The notes under the pieces are model-generated. The model made no database searches and was not told the origin of the DNA. It saw only the letters and a program-made list of their open reading frames with translations. A program made the translations under genes and the position numbers. A DNA stretch of 64,000 nt, from positions 4,325 to 68,324 of IMG/VR virus record IMGVR_UViG_3300020047_008132. One strand, given 5' to 3'. The DNA is from a virus. Lineage: Duplodnaviria > Caudoviricetes. Shown in pieces: positions 2,450-52,566 of the stretch; position 1 is the first letter of the stretch; each line of letters opens with the position of its first letter.

Positions 2450-2738
2450 TTCAATGTTTTTTGAGGTGGCCAAAGGTAGGGCATGCGACTCATTACAGGC
2501 CGCACAATCAACGCTAATCAAAAGCCAGGGAGAACAGCTACTTAACCAAGATAGTGCCTTAAAACTAGCCGTATCGCTTTCAGAAGCCAAAGAAGCAGAA
2601 GTTAAGGAATTACGCCAAGCGTTGACTAAAACAGAGGCTAAGTCCAAGATGGAACTAAAAGACCAAAAGACCAAAACCAGAAAGATAACTTTAATAGCTA
2701 TCGGTCAGGCTGTTATCATTGTGCTGTTAATCCTTTAG
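2361..2738 (+). CDS. Signal peptide + coiled coil + C-terminal TM protein (spanin-like)
   Basis: MKALFLSLLLM signal, coiled coil, C-terminal IAIGQAVIIVLLIL. Confidence 0.4.
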   Translation: MKALFLSLLLMTMSGIAYSQFYTLPAVYVDSMFFEVAKGRACDSLQAAQSTLIKSQGEQLLNQDSALKLAVSLSEAKEAEVKELRQALTKTEAKSKMELKDQKTKTRKITLIAIGQAVIIVLLIL

Positions 2739-2879
2739 ATTCAATTTAAACGGATATTATGGCTTATATATACTTATTATAAGCAATGCAAGCCGCCAAT
2801 TAAAAAAGCTGCCATAACCCCACCTCCTCCGCTACACGTGCCCACGCTCACGCTTTTTTGCCCACGCAGCAAGCACTGC

Positions 2880-3722
2880 TTATAACACCAAGTTTGTGCC
2901 ATTTGTAAAAAATTGTTTTATATTTTGCTTCATTTTTAAAACTTTAAAGAAAAAACCCACCGCACTAGAGTAACTAAAAAAGTGTAGTCTGACTTATAAA
3001 GTCACGGTAGCGTTGCTCCTGCTTATCAAAATACTCTTTATCAATTTCAAAGGCGGTAAAGTCCATCTTGTATTTGTGTGCTGAAATACGGTTAGAGCCT
3101 GAGCCTAAATGCGTGTCAATTACTTTCATTCCTTCTTCGGCATAGTTTTTATATATCCAGTCATATAATGCAACCGGCTTTTGTGTAGGGTGTGTTTTCT
3201 TTTCTCCTTGTGGATTATTCAAATATCCAAACCCAATCCAGTCATAGGTGAATCTTCTCAAGATACAATTAAATGAAGTCCACGCAAGTTCACCGTCTGA
3301 AAAGTTTGTATTATTTGCATTCGTTATTTTTTTATCCCAAAAAATCCATCCCTTCTTAGGTGGCAGTAAGTCTGCAAAATAATTACCTCCCCATACAATT
3401 TGATTCTTTGAAACGCGTTGAAGTTCGGCAAAGTATTCATCACTTGGTCGTTCATTATCCCATCCTTTTTTATCATGGTGCTGTTTATTTGAAAAAGTGT
3501 TTGCCTTACCTCCTTTGCCTTTTACGGTGGTATTCCCATCAAAGTTGATTCCGTATGGCGGGTCAACGACAGCCAAGTCGAAATAATTATCAGGAAACTG
3601 TTTCATTCCTTCGACACAATCAGAATTAAATACAATAGAACCCACGCTTTTTTTCTTTAAAGTTTTAAAAATTCATAAGGTCAATTTTTTACAAACGGAC
3701 ACAAACTCTTGCAGCGTTAGCT
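2880..3722 (+). repeat. attC-like site with a gene inside its loop
   Basis: R'' TTATAAC 2880-2886, R' GTTAGCT 3716-3722; arms ~2890-2955 and ~3648-3708 are inverted repeats (AGTTTGTG-CCATTTGTAAAAAATTG; TTTTTAAAACTTTAAAGAAAAAA). Confidence 0.75.
2974..3645 (-). CDS. DNA N4-cytosine/N6-adenine methyltransferase (beta class)
   Basis: DPPY motif, HPTQKP, then DTHLGSGS SAM-binding motif; GTG start. Confidence 0.9.
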   Translation of the reverse strand: MGSIVFNSDCVEGMKQFPDNYFDLAVVDPPYGINFDGNTTVKGKGGKANTFSNKQHHDKKGWDNERPSDEYFAELQRVSKNQIVWGGNYFADLLPPKKGWIFWDKKITNANNTNFSDGELAWTSFNCILRRFTYDWIGFGYLNNPQGEKKTHPTQKPVALYDWIYKNYAEEGMKVIDTHLGSGSNRISAHKYKMDFTAFEIDKEYFDKQEQRYRDFISQTTLF

Positions 3723-4058
3723 GCCATTTGCGGACGACAAAACATATCTCGGCATTGGTTCGCCTTGATGCTGTTCGATACCTTTAAACACCAGCGTTTT
3801 GTTTTCAATAAGCGGACGTATTACTTCGTGCCGTACAAGGCAATCAGCATACATAAACATTCCACGTTCAGGCAAAAACCAAACGCTGTGAAACATCCCC
3901 TGCGGTTTGTAAAATTCATCTTCTAACGATAGTTCGTGTTCAATCGCTTCAATTATTTTACGTTGGCTTAAATCAATTGAATAATCAAATTTTTCTCCAC
4001 CTACGCCTGACGACCTATGTAGGCCATCATTAAATCCGTTTAATAAATTCTTTTCCAT
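3717..4058 (-). CDS. Hypothetical cassette protein
   Basis: ORF fills the cassette; stop TAA lies in the complement of the GTTAG core site. Confidence 0.6.
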   Translation of the reverse strand: MEKNLLNGFNDGLHRSSGVGGEKFDYSIDLSQRKIIEAIEHELSLEDEFYKPQGMFHSVWFLPERGMFMYADCLVRHEVIRPLIENKTLVFKGIEQHQGEPMPRYVLSSANGS

Positions 4059-4121
4059 TTTGTCAAGTTATATGTTTACTTTTTAATCATTTTGTCAAGT
4101 TATAGGCTGACTAAAAACGGC

Positions 4122-4252
4122 AGCTAACAATATATTGGCAAAAGGCGGGCTGACGGTAATTAGAATGAGCATTTGCACTTTTGGCAACATTCCTACATAA
4201 CTCATCAGTAGTGCTATATTTCCCGCCCTTCGCCAATATTTTGCCGTTAGCG
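4122..4252 (+). repeat. attC-like site
   Basis: AGCTAAC...GTTAGCG; stem ATATTGGCAAAAGGCGGG / CCCGCCCTTCGCCAATAT. Confidence 0.85.
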
Positions 4253-4274
4253 GTAATTGCACCCCACCGCACGG

Positions 4275-4667
4275 TTAGAGTTCTTTATGAATTTGTAAAT
4301 AGTCCTCCAATTCGGTTAATGTATTTGCAGGTATATTAAAACCATCACTTTGCAAGTCGGGATTTTCTACCTTCATATTATCAAACATCCATCTCATAGT
4401 TTCTTGGGCGTTTTTTAATAAATTGAATTGCTTTGAAATATCCCTTTCATTTTGGTTTTTAAAAAATGCGTATTCTAAACAAGTTCTTGAGCAATAGTGG
4501 TGCATCCCATTACTTTCAATAATATGGCTATCTGTGCTATCATTTTTTATTTTGCCATTAATTATAATCCACCTAAATGGATGCTCTTTAATATCATTAA
4601 CCTCATAGGTATTTTCGCATTTTTTACCATCTTCAAAACGGTGTCCATCACATTTGTATATTAACAT
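4275..4667 (-). CDS. Hypothetical cassette protein with Cys/His (possible Zn) motifs
   Basis: YKCDG..KCE and HYCSRTC. Confidence 0.55.
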   Translation of the reverse strand: MLIYKCDGHRFEDGKKCENTYEVNDIKEHPFRWIIINGKIKNDSTDSHIIESNGMHHYCSRTCLEYAFFKNQNERDISKQFNLLKNAQETMRWMFDNMKVENPDLQSDGFNIPANTLTELEDYLQIHKEL

Positions 4668-4715
4668 ATTATTTTAGTTTTAAATTGTTTCTAATTCATT
4701 CGCTGTGCAACTAAC

Positions 4716-4772
4716 CGCTAACAGCGTATAAAAGCCATTGAAAAAACGGCTCTTATACGCAAAACGTTATGC
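4716..4772 (+). repeat. Short attC-like site (57 bp)
   Basis: CGCTAAC A GCGTATAAAAGCCA-loop-CGGCTCTTATACGC AAAAC GTTATGC. Confidence 0.85.
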
Positions 4773-5048
4773 GAAACCGCCAACATTCGTATAAGAAAAA
4801 AGCGTTTGTTGATATTCTGCAGAAAGATTTTTTACTTTCTCTAATTCATTCGGCATATTTTTATACAAGCCTTTTTGTCTATTTTGTTCACATTGAAATA
4901 AATATCTCTGAATGCTCCAAAGTTTTAAAAAATCTTTCTTTGGAATATCCCAATTTCTTAAATTGTAAAATCCTTGCAAAGGTTGGTATTCGCATAACAC
5001 AGGTTTTGCAATACCGTGCTTGAATGTTTCAGTTGGACTATTTTTCAT
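4767..5048 (-). CDS. Hypothetical cassette protein starting inside the attC loop
   Basis: ATG at 5048 within attC 4992-5123; stop overlaps GTTAT core at 4766. Confidence 0.55.
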   Translation of the reverse strand: MKNSPTETFKHGIAKPVLCEYQPLQGFYNLRNWDIPKKDFLKLWSIQRYLFQCEQNRQKGLYKNMPNELEKVKNLSAEYQQTLFSYTNVGGFA

Positions 5049-5123
5049 TTTAATAAAGTTTTTTGTTAGTATTTAGTTTCGTTGTCTTTAGGCACGGCAT
5101 CGCAAAGCCTTTTAACGTTATGT
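4992..5123 (+). repeat. attC-like site
   Basis: GCATAAC...GTTATGT; stem GGTTTTGCAATACCGTGC / GCACGGCATCGCAAAGCC. Confidence 0.85.
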
Positions 5124-5170
5124 GCAATTTTCTTTTTCATTTTTTTTCCCACCGCACAATGATTAAATGA

Positions 5171-5995
5171 TTAATCGAAGTTGCATATAGCACAATTTTG
5201 TTTTTCAAAGTTCACTTCCCAATCTTCACGACCAAATGATAAATAAGTTTTAATAAAATCTTCTTCATCTCTGCCCCAGTGCTTTTTTAGTCTGTTGCTT
5301 AAATCAACTGCCCTTTGCCAATATTCAGGGTAATGTATTCGCACCAATTCAAAATCCGACTTCTGCATATTTTTGCATGGTAAGCAGTTGTTATGGGTAA
5401 ATACTCTTTTCCCTGCTTCGTTTCTGATGTCGTAAATTTTCGGATACCAACCTATTTTTTCTTTCACAATTCCAAAACACCATTCATTGTCTTTATCTAT
5501 AATTGGAAATGCTTTGTAATAAATCATGTTTGGTGCATTGACAAACATTCGCTTTTCCCTTCGCCTTTCGTTTCTCACATAGCCCACCAAATCAATTTCA
5601 ATTCGTTTTTCTGCCATGTAATTTACAATCGGAATTACTTTTAATTCCTTTGTGCAAATTGGAATAGCTGCCGGGTGTGGTATCATTTTCATTTTCTCAA
5701 AATGAGCAATGATGCTATTCCAAGTTTCTTTGTAGAAAACGGTTTTGAAATTTTTCTTTGCAAACTCAACCCCTGCCAAAACAAAATCTCTTGTGTCTGG
5801 GCTATGTTCTTCAAAGTGTGCATAGAATAAATGCAACTCCAAAGGCTTTTTTTCTTCTGCTATTTCAGCCAACCAACACAGCACAGCCATTGAGTTTATG
5901 CCACCTGATAAACCAATCATAATTTTCTTATCTGAGAAATCACCTTTCTCAATCATAAGTGCTGCTGTATCTCTTTCAAATAATTCTATCTGCAT
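5171..5995 (-). CDS. PAPS reductase-like (PP-loop) protein
   Basis: IGLSGGINS PP-loop, PICTKELK, GYVRNERRR, C-terminal NCLPC; ATG at 5995 preferred. Confidence 0.75.
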   Translation of the reverse strand: MQIELFERDTAALMIEKGDFSDKKIMIGLSGGINSMAVLCWLAEIAEEKKPLELHLFYAHFEEHSPDTRDFVLAGVEFAKKNFKTVFYKETWNSIIAHFEKMKMIPHPAAIPICTKELKVIPIVNYMAEKRIEIDLVGYVRNERRREKRMFVNAPNMIYYKAFPIIDKDNEWCFGIVKEKIGWYPKIYDIRNEAGKRVFTHNNCLPCKNMQKSDFELVRIHYPEYWQRAVDLSNRLKKHWGRDEEDFIKTYLSFGREDWEVNFEKQNCAICNFD

Positions 5996-6054
5996 ACTTT
6001 TAATGATTAAATTGATTAATTGCCCACGCACAAAAAATGAAAAAGAAAACAGAC

Positions 6055-6186
6055 ACATAACAGCACCTAACCAAAATTGGCGGCTTAGCGGTAAATTGAA
6101 CTGTATTGCTTCGTATCATCATTTGTGCTTGTTTGAAAATTTGTACTTCGTAATCGCCAACTTCGGTTAGCCGCAAAACGTTAATC
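6055..6186 (+). repeat. attC-like site, right end of array 1
   Basis: ACATAAC...GTTAATC; stem CTAACCAAAATTGGCG / CGCCAACTTCGGTTAG. Confidence 0.85.
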
Positions 6187-6646
6187 AAAACCTAATCCAT
6201 GCACCAATACTTGGCGCAAAAGTGAAATGGTTACTCATTGTAAGTTCATACCTGATCGCGATATCCCTGTTTACTTCCTGAATGATACTGCCCCCGAATG
6301 TCATGCCATGACCAACGCGGTCAGATTCATCCGTCGGCATTGAGGTAAGACTGTATCCAATGATTAACCTTGCGGTGATGTCTTTGTCAAGTTCAAAGCT
6401 GTAACCGGTGCGAACCTGGAGCACCTTAGGAGCCGATACTTCCGGCGAAAGCGTGATGATCTGATTGTATTCGAGGAAAGATGGTCCAATGTTCCTGCCA
6501 GCCGTTAAGTTGGCGGAAAGGTATGATGAACTTCCTGGGACGTAGCCCAACGCAAGCGAGGCGTAGCCGTTGTGTTTGTTTATTTGGGCAAAGGAGGCCA
6601 TGGAAAAGATGATCAGCAGTAGGGTGATGATGGTTATGGTTTTCAT
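6185..6646 (-). CDS. Secreted/outer-membrane beta-barrel-like protein
   Basis: Sec signal ending SFA-Q, amphipathic beta pattern, C-terminal aromatic WIRF. Confidence 0.55.
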   Translation of the reverse strand: MKTITIITLLLIIFSMASFAQINKHNGYASLALGYVPGSSSYLSANLTAGRNIGPSFLEYNQIITLSPEVSAPKVLQVRTGYSFELDKDITARLIIGYSLTSMPTDESDRVGHGMTFGGSIIQEVNRDIAIRYELTMSNHFTFAPSIGAWIRF

Positions 6647-47191: not shown

Positions 47192-47322
47192 TTATAACAC
47201 GTGTTTTGTGCAATAGGGGCTGTGGTGGTTTATTCAAGTTTCTGCTTCTAATCAAGGTCTGTGGTAGGTTGAAGGTTTCGTTTCCAAAATCCCCTACTGC
47301 ACAAAGCACCTTAACGTTACCT
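47192..47322 (+). repeat. attC-like site, right end of array 2
   Basis: TTATAAC...GTTACCT; stem GTGTTTTGTGCAATAGGGG / CCCCTACTGCACAAAGCAC. Confidence 0.85.
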
Positions 47323-47508
47323 ACCCACCCCGCACGTATCTACCGGCACATCGTAGTGCATATTCCAGCCATCTACTACTACTACCGGTGCGGTGGCTTT
47401 GGTGCAGCTAAACAAAGCGGTGCTGGTAATTATTGCCAGTATAATAAACAGCAGTGCCAGTAAAATTTTTTGGCTGCGTAAAAGTGGTTTGCGTTTTTTG
47501 TTTTTCAT
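47317..47508 (-). CDS. Small lipoprotein-like protein
   Basis: Basic N-terminus, hydrophobic helix, LFSC. Confidence 0.5.
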   Translation of the reverse strand: MKNKKRKPLLRSQKILLALLFIILAIITSTALFSCTKATAPVVVVDGWNMHYDVPVDTCGVGR

Positions 47509-49936: not shown

Positions 49937-52566
49937 TTCTTATCGTATTTAGTGCCTTCGGTGCCAAAGGGGTTTTCTTCAGCCGCCATGTGCTTTATAT
50001 TAAATAGGTTTACTTTTTCGGTGGTGGTGGTGGGTCGCTCAGGATGGGTGGTGGTGTCTGGGGTTTCGGGTTCGTCCAGGTGTTTGCCTGTTACCCATTT
50101 ATCGTATTCAAACATATAGCAGCGGGCTACGCGGCTGGTGTCGTAAACGGGTTCGTCTATACCGTTGGTGGTGCGTATGTTGGTGGGGTAGCGTATAATG
50201 CTGGGTGCGCCCGGGTTCATTCCTTTTTTATCCTTCAGGTAGTTTTTTAAGTCGGTGGTGTCTAACTTGTATTTGCTGTAACCTTCTTTGGTAATAGCTT
50301 CCACCAACCCGCGCAGGTCCAGTTTAAAGTAGGTGCAGCCAAAGGGTTGGAAGGTTTTAAGTTTGTCTATTATAAACTCGTCTACCACTTTATCTATGCG
50401 GTTGCGGGTTTTTTCTATAATAATTTGCAGTTGCTCGGTTTTTAATACTTCGGGGTCAAACCAAGCGCGGCCAATTTTTGGGTGTACCACTTCTCTGTTT
50501 TGCAAAAAGTTAAGCCATGCCGGTATTTCGGGGCGCATAAGTTTTTCGCGCAGGTCGGGTAGTTCTTTTGTAAACGGATGCACACGCACCACCCACCAGC
50601 GTATTTCTCCGTCCTCTATCTTCATTAGGTTATCGGCATCGTTACTGGCAATAATTATTTTGCCGTAAAAATCTATTTCGTAAACATCGCTGCCTTTAAA
50701 TTCTAAATACTGCCTGTCATCGGTTGCCATCTTTTTAAGGCGCTCCTTTTCTTTCTTCTTCTCTACATCTAAAAACCCTTCATCTATACCAATTACATGC
50801 TTGGTTATGTAGTGGCTGTTAAACGACATTTGGAAACGTTCGTTATCTATAACCGTGGCGTTGCTTCCGTAAATATCGCGCAGCCATTTCAGAAAGGTAG
50901 ATTTACCGGTGTTGTTCTCCGGGCTTACCAAACACAGCACCGGTAATATTATTTTGGGCTGCGCATACATTAAATTAAGGTAGTCAAGCGCAATAGTGAA
51001 CGGGTCTTTTAATATAGAAACTTCGCGATAGTTACCTGTGAATACAAAGGGGGTGCGTTTGCCTATTTCTGTAGGTATAGCTGTAAATTGTTTCCCCTTG
51101 TAATCGTTTCTATTTTCGTCAGTAATTAAAACAGGGGCGGTATCTACAATAATGTATTCGGCAGGCTCTATATCTTCAACAGCAACAAAACGACCTTCTG
51201 TTGTTTCAAACTCAATAGTTGCCTTACCTTTAAACAGGTGTTTTAAAAATAAAACAGTATAGTAAATATTGCCCGGTGCCGGTGGTATAGGCATAGGGTT
51301 AAAAAGGTTGTAGCACTTGCCAAACTCTTTGTTGTCAATTACTCGCCTGTATTCACGGTGCATAGCCGGTTCGTTTGCCCATGCTTCCATTTTAGGTATA
51401 TCATCTAAAAAGGTAGGATACTGTTTTATGTAGTCGCGCTGTATTTCGCCTACCTTCCATTTTTTTACTTCGGCCAGTAAACCGTATTTGCTGGGCACCC
51501 ATACTTCCTTAAACCAATCGCAACCCACGCGCACAAACTTTTGTATATCTTCATGCAGAATTTTGTGCAGGCGTTCTTCGTCTGCTATCCAGCGGTAGGT
51601 TTGCTTCTTATACTTAAACTCGTTATCGGTTAGGTATTCCTGGTAAACGGTGTAAAAGTCCTGCGGACCGGTAAGCCCAAAGTGCTGGCTAATTTTGTTT
51701 AAGCCATCGGTTATATTCTGTATGTAGAAATAATGGCTATTAAAGCTAAGTGCGTTAAGGCTGTTTACTATGCTGTCTTTATTATGCGCGAAGTTTTGCA
51801 GTAAATCATCTAAGCCCTTGCCGGTGGCTACGTGTTTGCGGTCAATGTGCCCAAAATAGGCATCGCGCAGGGCAAGGTCGGTGCCGGTGGTAATAGCCAG
51901 CATGGCTGCTTCGCGGAAGTTTTTAACGCTGCTGTAAAAGCTAACGGGGCGTTGCGCTAAATCGGTATCGGGTTTGTAGGTAAGGGTGAGGGTGTCGGCA
52001 TCGGTAAGCAGTAGTATTTTTTCTACCTGGCATACGCGGCAAAGTTCTATAATATCAAAGTGCAGTTTCTTGCTGCCATCGGGATCATAAAAGCCCTGTA
52101 TGCCGGTAATGCCTACTACGTGCAGCCCGGCATTGCAGCCTGCCACGGCTTTAAATTCGCCTTCGGTAAGCACCAGCAGGGGTATTTTGGTTTTGTTGGT
52201 GTATGCGTCTATTATCTGCGGGGTAAAGTAGGGGCAGTTGTGGCTACCCTTCGGGCTTTGGTATTTGCGCTCCTTTGGTTTGGTTATGCCGTTTTCGGTT
52301 ACTTCGGTAATGGTGGGCACTTGCAGGCGGTCGCGGTAGTAATTTTTTACCCAGTCGCGGTTGCCATCTTCGGTTTTCTTTTGGTGGAAGGTGTACGGGG
52401 TGCCGTCTAACCGGTAGTAGTGTATGCGAATATCGCCACGCTCCGTTTGCTCAAACCGGGTGCGCTGCACGGGTTTGCCTAAGTGCTGGGCGGTAAAGTG
52501 CATGGTGGTGGCGGTAATGCCGAGGGCAGCCATGCGGGTGCTGAAGTATGTAGTAGTTTCGGACAC
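49933..52566 (-). CDS. Toprim primase - P-loop helicase fusion
   Basis: LTEGEFKA..VGITGI..DAD Toprim; SPENNTGKST Walker A, IGIDE Walker B. Confidence 0.85.
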   Translation of the reverse strand: MSETTTYFSTRMAALGITATTMHFTAQHLGKPVQRTRFEQTERGDIRIHYYRLDGTPYTFHQKKTEDGNRDWVKNYYRDRLQVPTITEVTENGITKPKERKYQSPKGSHNCPYFTPQIIDAYTNKTKIPLLVLTEGEFKAVAGCNAGLHVVGITGIQGFYDPDGSKKLHFDIIELCRVCQVEKILLLTDADTLTLTYKPDTDLAQRPVSFYSSVKNFREAAMLAITTGTDLALRDAYFGHIDRKHVATGKGLDDLLQNFAHNKDSIVNSLNALSFNSHYFYIQNITDGLNKISQHFGLTGPQDFYTVYQEYLTDNEFKYKKQTYRWIADEERLHKILHEDIQKFVRVGCDWFKEVWVPSKYGLLAEVKKWKVGEIQRDYIKQYPTFLDDIPKMEAWANEPAMHREYRRVIDNKEFGKCYNLFNPMPIPPAPGNIYYTVLFLKHLFKGKATIEFETTEGRFVAVEDIEPAEYIIVDTAPVLITDENRNDYKGKQFTAIPTEIGKRTPFVFTGNYREVSILKDPFTIALDYLNLMYAQPKIILPVLCLVSPENNTGKSTFLKWLRDIYGSNATVIDNERFQMSFNSHYITKHVIGIDEGFLDVEKKKEKERLKKMATDDRQYLEFKGSDVYEIDFYGKIIIASNDADNLMKIEDGEIRWWVVRVHPFTKELPDLREKLMRPEIPAWLNFLQNREVVHPKIGRAWFDPEVLKTEQLQIIIEKTRNRIDKVVDEFIIDKLKTFQPFGCTYFKLDLRGLVEAITKEGYSKYKLDTTDLKNYLKDKKGMNPGAPSIIRYPTNIRTTNGIDEPVYDTSRVARCYMFEYDKWVTGKHLDEPETPDTTTHPERPTTTTEKVNLFNIKHMAAEENPFGTEGTKYDKK

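Follow-up and report, generated by a model that had tools for sequence, protein, structure and literature searches.

The 64,000-nucleotide stretch of viral DNA analyzed here (the window; positions 4,325 to 68,324 of IMG/VR record IMGVR_UViG_3300020047_008132) makes up most of a 68,324-bp virus record rated complete, and at its positions 2777-6186 it carries integron-type gene cassettes in an array that lacks an integrase, with folded attC-type sites between them. Within this array, single genes are bordered by copies of a short motif and, outside these, by arms that are perfectly complementary to each other, motif and arms together marking the junction, or seam, between a gene and the hairpin that holds it. 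The motif family is a recurrent seam element that is tied to long perfect arms, is independent of the cargo, and is absent from ordinary phage genes, which sets aside the generic signal of phage genes that a first-pass annotation of this DNA had named as the outcome that would speak against its proposal. With respect to origin, we favor, tentatively and at somewhat under an even chance of being right, a second tier of cassette assembly in which units consisting of an open reading frame (ORF) are placed, under direction of the motif, at the tip of hairpin-form cassettes.

On the + strand, CCCACGC occurs at 2841, 2861, 3641, and 6023, and the form CCCACCGCAC at 2956, 4263, and 5148. Every copy that the first-pass annotation had reported, all on this strand, was confirmed. 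The seven same-strand copies of CCCAC(C)GC fall within 3.4 kb, where the expectation is ~0.05 per strand in the array (Poisson P ~2e-13), and none of 2000 dinucleotide shuffles reached 7 copies. Elsewhere in the whole 68-kb record there are only two matches, at 51524 (+) and 26818 (−), plus a variant CCCACCCCGC at 47324; a looser pattern that accepts this variant finds 8 copies on the + strand and 1 on the − strand of the whole record. In gene sense, the 5′ seam motif is GCGTGGG and the 3′ seam motif is GTGCGGTGGG, both belonging to a family (GT)GCG(G)TNGG. The copies are always co-oriented and stand at the inner ends of arms. On the 3′ side, the three window copies are one and the same 10-mer, and the 5′ copies have only GCGTGGG in common, being preceded by differing bases (GT, AA, CT, GA); this combination is as expected for hybrid sites. 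Moreover, the identical one-base difference separates the 5′ from the 3′ copy in both complete window modules.

The order of parts in these two modules, read in gene sense, is as follows. That of the DNA methyltransferase gene runs arm, A, GCGTGGG, ORF, 8 nt, GTGCGGTGGG, arm′, and that of the PP-loop/PAPS-reductase-like gene (PAPS-like below) runs box GTTATGTG, TCTG, arm, GTGCGTGGG, 27-nt leader, ORF, 13 nt, GTGCGGTGGG, arm′, TTG, box CACATAAC (Table 1). The arms pair at 24 of 24 positions in the former and 18 of 18 in the latter, and arms of different modules are unrelated in sequence. When the gene is taken out and a single motif copy retained, the flanks form clean hairpins whose loop is the motif (z = −11.5 to −12.9 versus shuffles), in agreement with the earlier proposal that collapsing each motif pair restores such a hairpin; specifically, the attC at 2878-3725 collapses to a 169-nt hairpin of −43.8 kcal/mol (z = −11.7). 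For the PAPS-like gene, that proposal holds as far as the 18-nt arms are concerned, but the outer elements that it had counted into the hairpin are the cassette's own core boxes and not a separate hairpin. The suggestion that the motif supplies the GTG start of the methyltransferase gene was likewise borne out: in an alignment with ten homologues, the GTG within the 5′ motif coincides with their native start codon. Since the motif supplies this codon, it is not sequence native to the cargo. At the 130-aa gene, where a motif copy had also been noted, only the 3′ side is intact, in the order stop codon, CC, GTGCGGTGGG, 9-nt arm, box; the 5′ partner is present merely in decayed form (GCGAATG in the window, GCGAAGGG in related locus L181).

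Table 1. Coordinates of cassette features in the window.
Feature	Position	Strand	Remarks
Gene-less cassette body	2777-2886	−	From TTATAAGC (2777-2784) to box GCTTATAAC (2878-2886); hairpin, gene-sense single-stranded DNA fold −17.2 kcal/mol
Motif copy GCGTGGG	2841-2847	−	Apical loop of gene-less cassette hairpin
Motif copy GCGTGGG	2861-2867	−	Inner end of gene-less cassette outer stem
attC holding the methyltransferase module in its apical loop	2878-3725	−	Boxes GCTTATAAC (2878-2886) and GTTAGCTGCC (3716-3725)
Methyltransferase module, 3′ arm, 24 nt	2932-2955	−	100% complementary to 3649-3672
3′ seam motif GTGCGGTGGG	2956-2965	−	8 nt past methyltransferase stop codon
N6/N4 DNA methyltransferase, 223 aa	2974-3645	−	PF01555; GTG start inside 5′ motif
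5′ seam motif GCGTGGG	3641-3647	−	Includes methyltransferase GTG start codon
Methyltransferase module, 5′ arm	3649-3672	−	Doubles as A-rich leader of the gene
Compact ordinary cassette, 113-aa gene (3717-4058)	3717-4128	−	Boxes GTTAGCTGCC and GGCAGCTAAC; without seam motif
Cassette of 130-aa gene (4275-4667)	4246-4722	−	Short arms TAATTGCAC (4254-4262) and GTGCAACTAA (4705-4714); boxes GTTAGCGG and CCGCTAAC
3′ seam motif GTGCGGTGGG of 130-aa gene	4263-4272	−	2 nt past stop codon
PP-loop/PAPS-reductase-like gene cassette	5117-6061	−	ORF 5171-5995, phrog_424
PAPS module, 3′ arm, 18 nt	5128-5145	−	100% complementary to 6032-6049
3′ seam motif GTGCGGTGGG of PAPS module	5148-5157	−	
5′ seam motif GTGCGTGGG	6023-6031	−	
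PAPS module, 5′ arm	6032-6049	−	
attC moving with PAPS gene	6054-6186	−	Boxes CACATAAC and GTTAATC
Variant GTGCGGGGTGGG	47324-47335	−	1 nt before core box, at edge of second array, in coding end of small lipoprotein ORF 47317-47508

The same layout recurs in other arrays, as seen in a survey of 55 non-redundant cassettes from related loci (designated by L numbers). In nearly all of these, the core box measures 8-10 bp and is followed, after a small conserved mismatch (G/T, TG/TT, TCG/TG, or TCTG/TTG), by a second stem of 3-6 bp, so that some end-pairing past the box is normal. Few cassettes have a long second stem, and where one occurs it mostly bears the window motif family at the seam. The complete series of core box, perfect arm, motif, ORF, motif, arm, and core box surrounds four unrelated genes on three contigs, namely the window methyltransferase and PAPS-like genes, an HD-domain gene in L181 (14-bp arm, GCGTTGG and GTGCGGTAGG), and a 119-aa ORF in L076 (12-bp arm, GCGTGGA and GTGCGTTGG). 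Copies on the 3′ side alone are found in the 130-aa cassette of the window and L181, in two L001 cassettes (GTGCGTCGGG and GTGCGGATGGG), and in another L181 cassette (GCGTTGG, 10-bp arm). When the enrichment check called for by the first-pass annotation was made on the 55 cassettes, 3′-form matches within 18 nt of the 3′ stem numbered 6 against 0.13 expected (P ~5e-9), 3 of the 6 being copies of the same 130-aa cassette and 1 being weak. Gene-less cassettes with motif-like sequence in their hairpin loops are present in the window (2777-2886), in L087 (90-nt hairpin with two GCGTAG copies), and in L135 (41-nt hairpin between two attC sites).

Homologues of the PAPS-like gene reveal a second motif family. 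The window layout is shared by L001 (58% protein identity), L002 (53%), and L059/L060 (97% protein, 91% nucleotide), and in all of these the 12-mer CTCTGTGTYCTC replaces the window motif in both seam positions, the forms CTCTGTGTCCTC or CTCTGTGTTCTC being seen on both sides. The two families have no common sequence, and the single CCCAC(C)GC signal first envisaged is therefore too narrow. The 12-mer is kept at 11-12 of 12 positions at both ends in cassettes whose ORFs share 62-73% nucleotide identity and whose leaders and untranslated regions are unrelated. In the four PAPS lineages the arms are perfect over 18, 22, 22, and 22 bp despite differing in sequence, which implies multiple compensatory changes. 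Whether arms and motif were inherited once was examined by a protein tree for the PAPS modules only; there, armed PAPS cassettes fall into two clades, each of which also holds genes outside arm-and-motif cassettes.

Two observations on PAPS cassettes stand apart from this comparison. The window gene has a further direct repeat of 18-19 nt, ATTAATCA(A)TTTAATCATT in gene sense, once in the leader (6002-6020) and once over and after the stop codon (5158-5175), giving the order motif-repeat-ORF-repeat-motif. In L069 (CXWK01069855.1, 1.8 kb), the start of a PAPS cassette (box, arm, and 5′ motif) is present twice, at 391-411 and ~1730-1844, with a small cassette in between, which reflects either cassettes in tandem or two array variants joined during assembly.

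The array in which these modules sit has the anatomy of an integron cassette array. All genes at 2777-6186 are coded on the minus strand, with folded sites that bear ..TAAC and GTTA.. boxes in between. Sites of attC type (..YAAC inverse-core and GTTR.. core boxes with an imperfect stem) number 6 in this array and 2 in the second. Throughout the window array, every right-hand box has its complement in the left-hand box that follows, a hallmark of integron cassettes, and the boxes are complementary over 8-10 bp across each gene both here and in the 55 surveyed cassettes. No match to the integron integrase family PF00589 exists anywhere in the 68-kb record. Because the phage encodes no tyrosine recombinase, the array counts as a cluster of attC sites lacking an integrase (CALIN); the carrier is probably a Bacteroidota phage. 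Exchange points are visible in relatives. In ten loci (L171-L180), the 113-aa gene and its upstream attC are identical to those in the window, and divergence sets in right after GGCAGCTAA/C and before the attC body; unit exchange at the core box is seen likewise for the PAPS cassette (L069, which departs from the window sequence directly after CACATAA/C) and for the 130-aa cassette (L163, L166, L181). In these relatives the attC travels with the gene 3′ of it, and the cassette here is therefore an attC plus its downstream gene. The gene-sense strand of the attC at 6054-6186 folds better than the other strand (−16.6 versus −9.3 kcal/mol). A classical integron has the gene upstream of its own attC and coded opposite the better-folding strand, whereas the window array has it downstream of the travelling attC and on the better-folding strand, which amounts to a classical cassette with the ORF reversed.

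Taken together, the seam and the exchange points suggest a system of two layers. In the first, an integron-type array lacking an integrase swaps attC plus downstream gene at ..TAA/C core boxes. In the second, an ORF unit occupies the tip of a perfect hairpin stem belonging to the cassette backbone; for the methyltransferase this stem is the apex of an attC, and for the PAPS-like and 130-aa genes it prolongs the paired cassette ends. Joining of the ORF unit at the motif into a hairpin-form, gene-less cassette would make a new cassette or re-load an old one, and the joining enzyme, which would not be phage-encoded, would recognize the stem and the single-stranded motif. The 5′ form would then be a target-left/cargo-right hybrid and the 3′ form a cargo-left/target-right hybrid; young cassettes would have long perfect arms and an intact motif, and old ones second stems of 3-6 bp without a motif. 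A more specific version, which we offer as speculation and think unlikely to hold in full, is a two-step assembly. A blank cassette would be formed from an attC and a hairpin with a lineage-specific motif loop of 7-12 nt, after which a structure- and motif-directed enzyme of the host or a helper element would load a bare ORF and leave the motif on both sides, long-armed cassettes being newly minted and compact ones aged. A second, motif-directed insertion of genes into empty hairpins was the central proposal of the first-pass annotation; seam anatomy, enrichment, and gene-less motif hairpins speak for it, but the motif proved not to be universal, and neither an empty allele nor a phage-encoded enzyme was found.

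A number of observations weigh against motif-directed placement. The motif is found on only about one in ten cassettes, and Polaribacter phage P12002L has arms of 12 and 18 bp with the TCTG/TTG spacer and without a seam repeat. The PAPS arms look homologous across lineages that have two different motifs, which fits poorly with simple independent insertion. Between the window and L060, the ORF and arms alone align, and the motif-plus-leader and trailer-plus-motif segments are replaced on both sides; L070 and L076 have PAPS-like ORFs of 92% nucleotide identity in unrelated flanks, homology stopping at the ORF ends. Such 91-92% identical ORFs in unrelated flanks suggest that ORF-only gene conversion between copies inside and outside cassettes is common in the PAPS family, and the window/L060 pattern is probably explained by this process and not by motif-directed movement. 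The 5′ arm, 5′ motif, and methyltransferase start are kept in L034, where the 3′ motif and 3′ arm are absent, so a 5′ arm is able to move along with the gene, serving as its leader. Pattern scans of IMG/VR with arm-loop-arm forms of both window hairpins and of the CTCTGTGTYCTC type returned nothing relevant, and the scans contained no circular junction. None of ten close relatives of the phage has a cargo-less allele, all ten keeping the PAPS module, so the comparison of empty with filled alleles that had been recommended yielded no pair. The accompanying search for a co-occurring enzyme found neither tyrosine (PF00589) nor serine (PF00239) recombinases nor Y1 HUH transposases (PF01797) among the phage genes; Rep-type families, reverse transcriptases, and the host were not searched. 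The pattern of copies does fit attL/attR hybrid sites. As no matched empty allele, circle, or phage-encoded enzyme was found, insertion is something we infer and not a demonstrated event.

Further searches concerned relatives of the modules. A scan with the gene-less cassette body gave no match, and an exact search with arm plus motif matched only L034 and, by chance, two unrelated viruses. The nearest methyltransferase homologues (83% identity) belong to ordinary operons and have no arms, cultured phages gave nothing beyond distant methyltransferase matches, and a synteny search with the neighboring 298-aa gene found no IMG/VR relatives.

Several of these observations could also be accommodated if arms and motif were a working structural or regulatory part of the folded cassette or its transcript and not the scar of an insertion, an account we regard as a serious rival, if somewhat less probable than motif-directed placement. 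The arms would lengthen the end stem, and the two unpaired motifs at the fork would bind a factor or mark a processing site, with possible roles in RNase III-type release of the ORF transcript, in control of attC folding, or in translation control of the next cassette. Conservation of motif and pairing over deep divergence is as expected for a selected element, and the second stem past the box in nearly all 55 cassettes makes extended end-pairing a general feature, to which the P12002L arms with their identical spacer conform. The gene-sense strand, hence the mRNA, is the one that folds better, and in each of the four PAPS cassettes a short ORF running on into the following attC begins within the 3′ arm, at an A-rich ATG start. 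Nonetheless, the presence of the motif on so few cassettes and the decay of 5′ copies show that it is dispensable. A structural role also sits poorly with two motif families unrelated in sequence, and it leaves unexplained why unrelated cargo has one motif and homologous cargo different ones. An Rfam search over 2600-6400 gave no family match and only a single sub-threshold chance hit.

The two gene families are also found in ordinary phage operons, where unique direct repeats of 12-38 nt bracket them, starting at the stop codon or immediately past it (28 nt in L070, 24 in L075, 20 in L148, 19 in L129, 18 in L096, 12 in L147, and 38 in L046); in the methyltransferase operon of L037 the repeat spans the first four codons. 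Such repeats generally mark gene insertion at ORF precision among these phages, where illegitimate insertion with duplication is accordingly common. By extension, the seam motifs might be target duplications from non-specific (illegitimate or template-switch) insertion for which hairpin loops are tolerant landing places, and the methyltransferase start codon taken from the repeat, as in L037, fits this idea. It would, however, need the same 10-mer loop in three unrelated hairpins of one array. Moreover, the operon repeats are all different while the motif family recurs on other contigs, the one-base difference between 5′ and 3′ copies is repeated in both complete window modules, and CTCTGTGTYCTC is conserved on both sides of ORFs as far apart as noted above. 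We accordingly regard non-specific insertion as improbable. As a separate observation, the operon repeats sometimes take in the start codon of the neighboring gene (PAPS-like: L070, L075, L096, L129, L147, and L148; methyltransferase: L046, L011, and L037).

In terms of DNA signals, the motif is G-rich, strand-specific, and always co-oriented, and the Chi site of Escherichia coli contains GGTGG, as does the 3′ motif form. A host or phage signal unrelated to cassette building, such as a Chi-like hotspot or a protein-binding site, might thus favor exchange or protect ends. We rate this as quite improbable, since the motif hardly occurs in the remaining 60 kb of the phage, its positions are fixed relative to stems instead of scattered, and the second motif family is pyrimidine-rich, unlike any Chi. 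Chance similarity in low-complexity, AT-rich spacer DNA also deserves mention because the arms are A/T-rich and arm-only searches also match unrelated AT-rich giant-virus DNA. The statistics of the motif cluster and of the fully paired arms, together with the presence of the layout on independent contigs, refute chance and leave it a negligible probability.

Other identities were also considered. The motif is not universal, as L001, L002, and L059/L060 carry CTCTGTGTYCTC; nor is it private to one lineage, as the same family occurs on L181, L076, and L001. Neither is it a general phage signal or a random target duplication. A transposon with terminal inverted repeats is excluded by the unrelated arms of different modules. 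One with target-site duplication is excluded by copies that differ by one base, by differing arms, and by the failure to find a Y1 transposase or recombinase. A loxP-like double-strand site is rejected because the arms of different modules are unrelated and the cargo side has none. Readings from sequence as a tRNA 3′ end, G-quadruplex, promoter, terminator, or Chi-like site were considered, and none fits both motif families.

Phage CALINs have been reported previously, including that of Polaribacter phage P12002L with its methyltransferase cassettes (Qi et al. 2023, PMC9892861). They resemble the window array in having folded attC-type sites (..TAAC/GTTA..) between genes, complementary cassette ends, mostly DNA methyltransferase cargo, and no integrase, and the box-TCTG-arm ... 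arm-TTG-box ends of P12002L are as in the window. Genes in an attC loop, perfect long arms, and paired seam motifs are not described in PMC9892861. The CALIN layer is thus already known for phages, and the new part is the seam itself, with motif and arms at the gene/hairpin junction.

Elements that act on attC sites offer a second comparison. Insertion sequences of the IS1111-attC type target attC hairpins. Group IIC-attC introns do so as well, and they have been proposed to help form cassettes (PMC3001079); their model likewise addresses the joining of genes and attC sites. Both kinds of element resemble the proposed second tier as a mobile layer nested in integron recombination sites. They differ from it in having their own enzyme (reverse transcriptase or transposase), a fixed insertion place in attC, and no flanking direct motif, whereas the window insert is a bare ORF with a leader of 0-34 nt, and Rfam shows no intron RNA. 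The PeSL (promoter-early stem-loop) regulatory cassettes of T4-type phages reportedly consist of short repeated non-coding modules that flank single accessory ORFs in variable regions of the phage, and they would drive ORF shuffling via circles. PeSL modules, however, are local hairpins directly repeated between genes and exchange by homology, whereas the window has a long-range stem spanning the ORF and a repeat of 7-12 nt, all inside an attC cassette. Sites of HUH enzymes (rolling-circle origins, IS200/IS605 ends, and REP/RAYT) combine a hairpin with a short motif. The collapsed window hairpins have this geometry, an arbitrary-sequence stem presenting a short conserved single-stranded motif, and if two such sites were joined, a motif copy would remain on each side of the insert. 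The likeness does not extend to a Y1 HUH gene in the phage or to a common nick-site consensus, and IS200/IS605 elements have local subterminal hairpins and leave no direct repeat.

How genes are joined to attC sites has not been established, and we know of no other mechanism shown to join them. The landmarks at the seam between cargo and backbone (the motif, covarying perfect arms, gene-less hairpin cassettes, and a whole gene in an attC loop) make cassette building testable here. Metagenome material is abundant, the neighboring 113-aa protein alone having an exact match in >300 blocks of the contig collection, which makes it feasible to test for circle junctions and for alleles with and without cargo. 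The phage itself is present in samples such as JGI 3300020036 and ENA ERZ2271846 and ERZ2272097. If true, two-step assembly would be a concrete, testable route of cassette genesis. The cargo comprises DNA-modification genes that are probably anti-restriction, and the process would accordingly be relevant to the renewal of counter-defence genes in phages. Should the motif turn out to be regulatory, the enclosure of cassette ORFs by a conserved long-range stem with paired motifs at its fork would still be, as far as we have found, undescribed.

Some further features of these arrays and their relatives deserve mention. The motif variant that the first-pass annotation had placed after the last attC of the window does adjoin a core box, but it falls within the final coding part of a small lipoprotein ORF (Table 1); an inverted partner, GTGCGGTGG (+ strand, 47388-47396), is 52 nt off within the same ORF. 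The two methyltransferase cassettes of P12002L (L190; 30848-30900 and 38816-38870) have a common leader element, GCTGACGWTAGGAAGSCAAA, which forms a small hairpin just inside the 5′ arms and may be that lineage's counterpart of the seam or regulatory motif. A contig of ENA ERZ27276474 (protein P0242) encodes a 70% homologue of the 130-aa protein and, 136 nt downstream, a tyrosine recombinase of 280 aa (PF00589), which is a candidate for the integrase of these phage arrays. The 113-aa cassette (window 3717-4256; L171-L180) is an unusually successful cassette of unknown function that is identical across many phage contexts. Just 5′ of its gene, at 4044-4112, is a tandem duplication of 25-26 nt (CATTTTGTCAAGTTATA.. 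twice, 32 nt apart) that contains an ATG and could be a duplicated start region or an operator.

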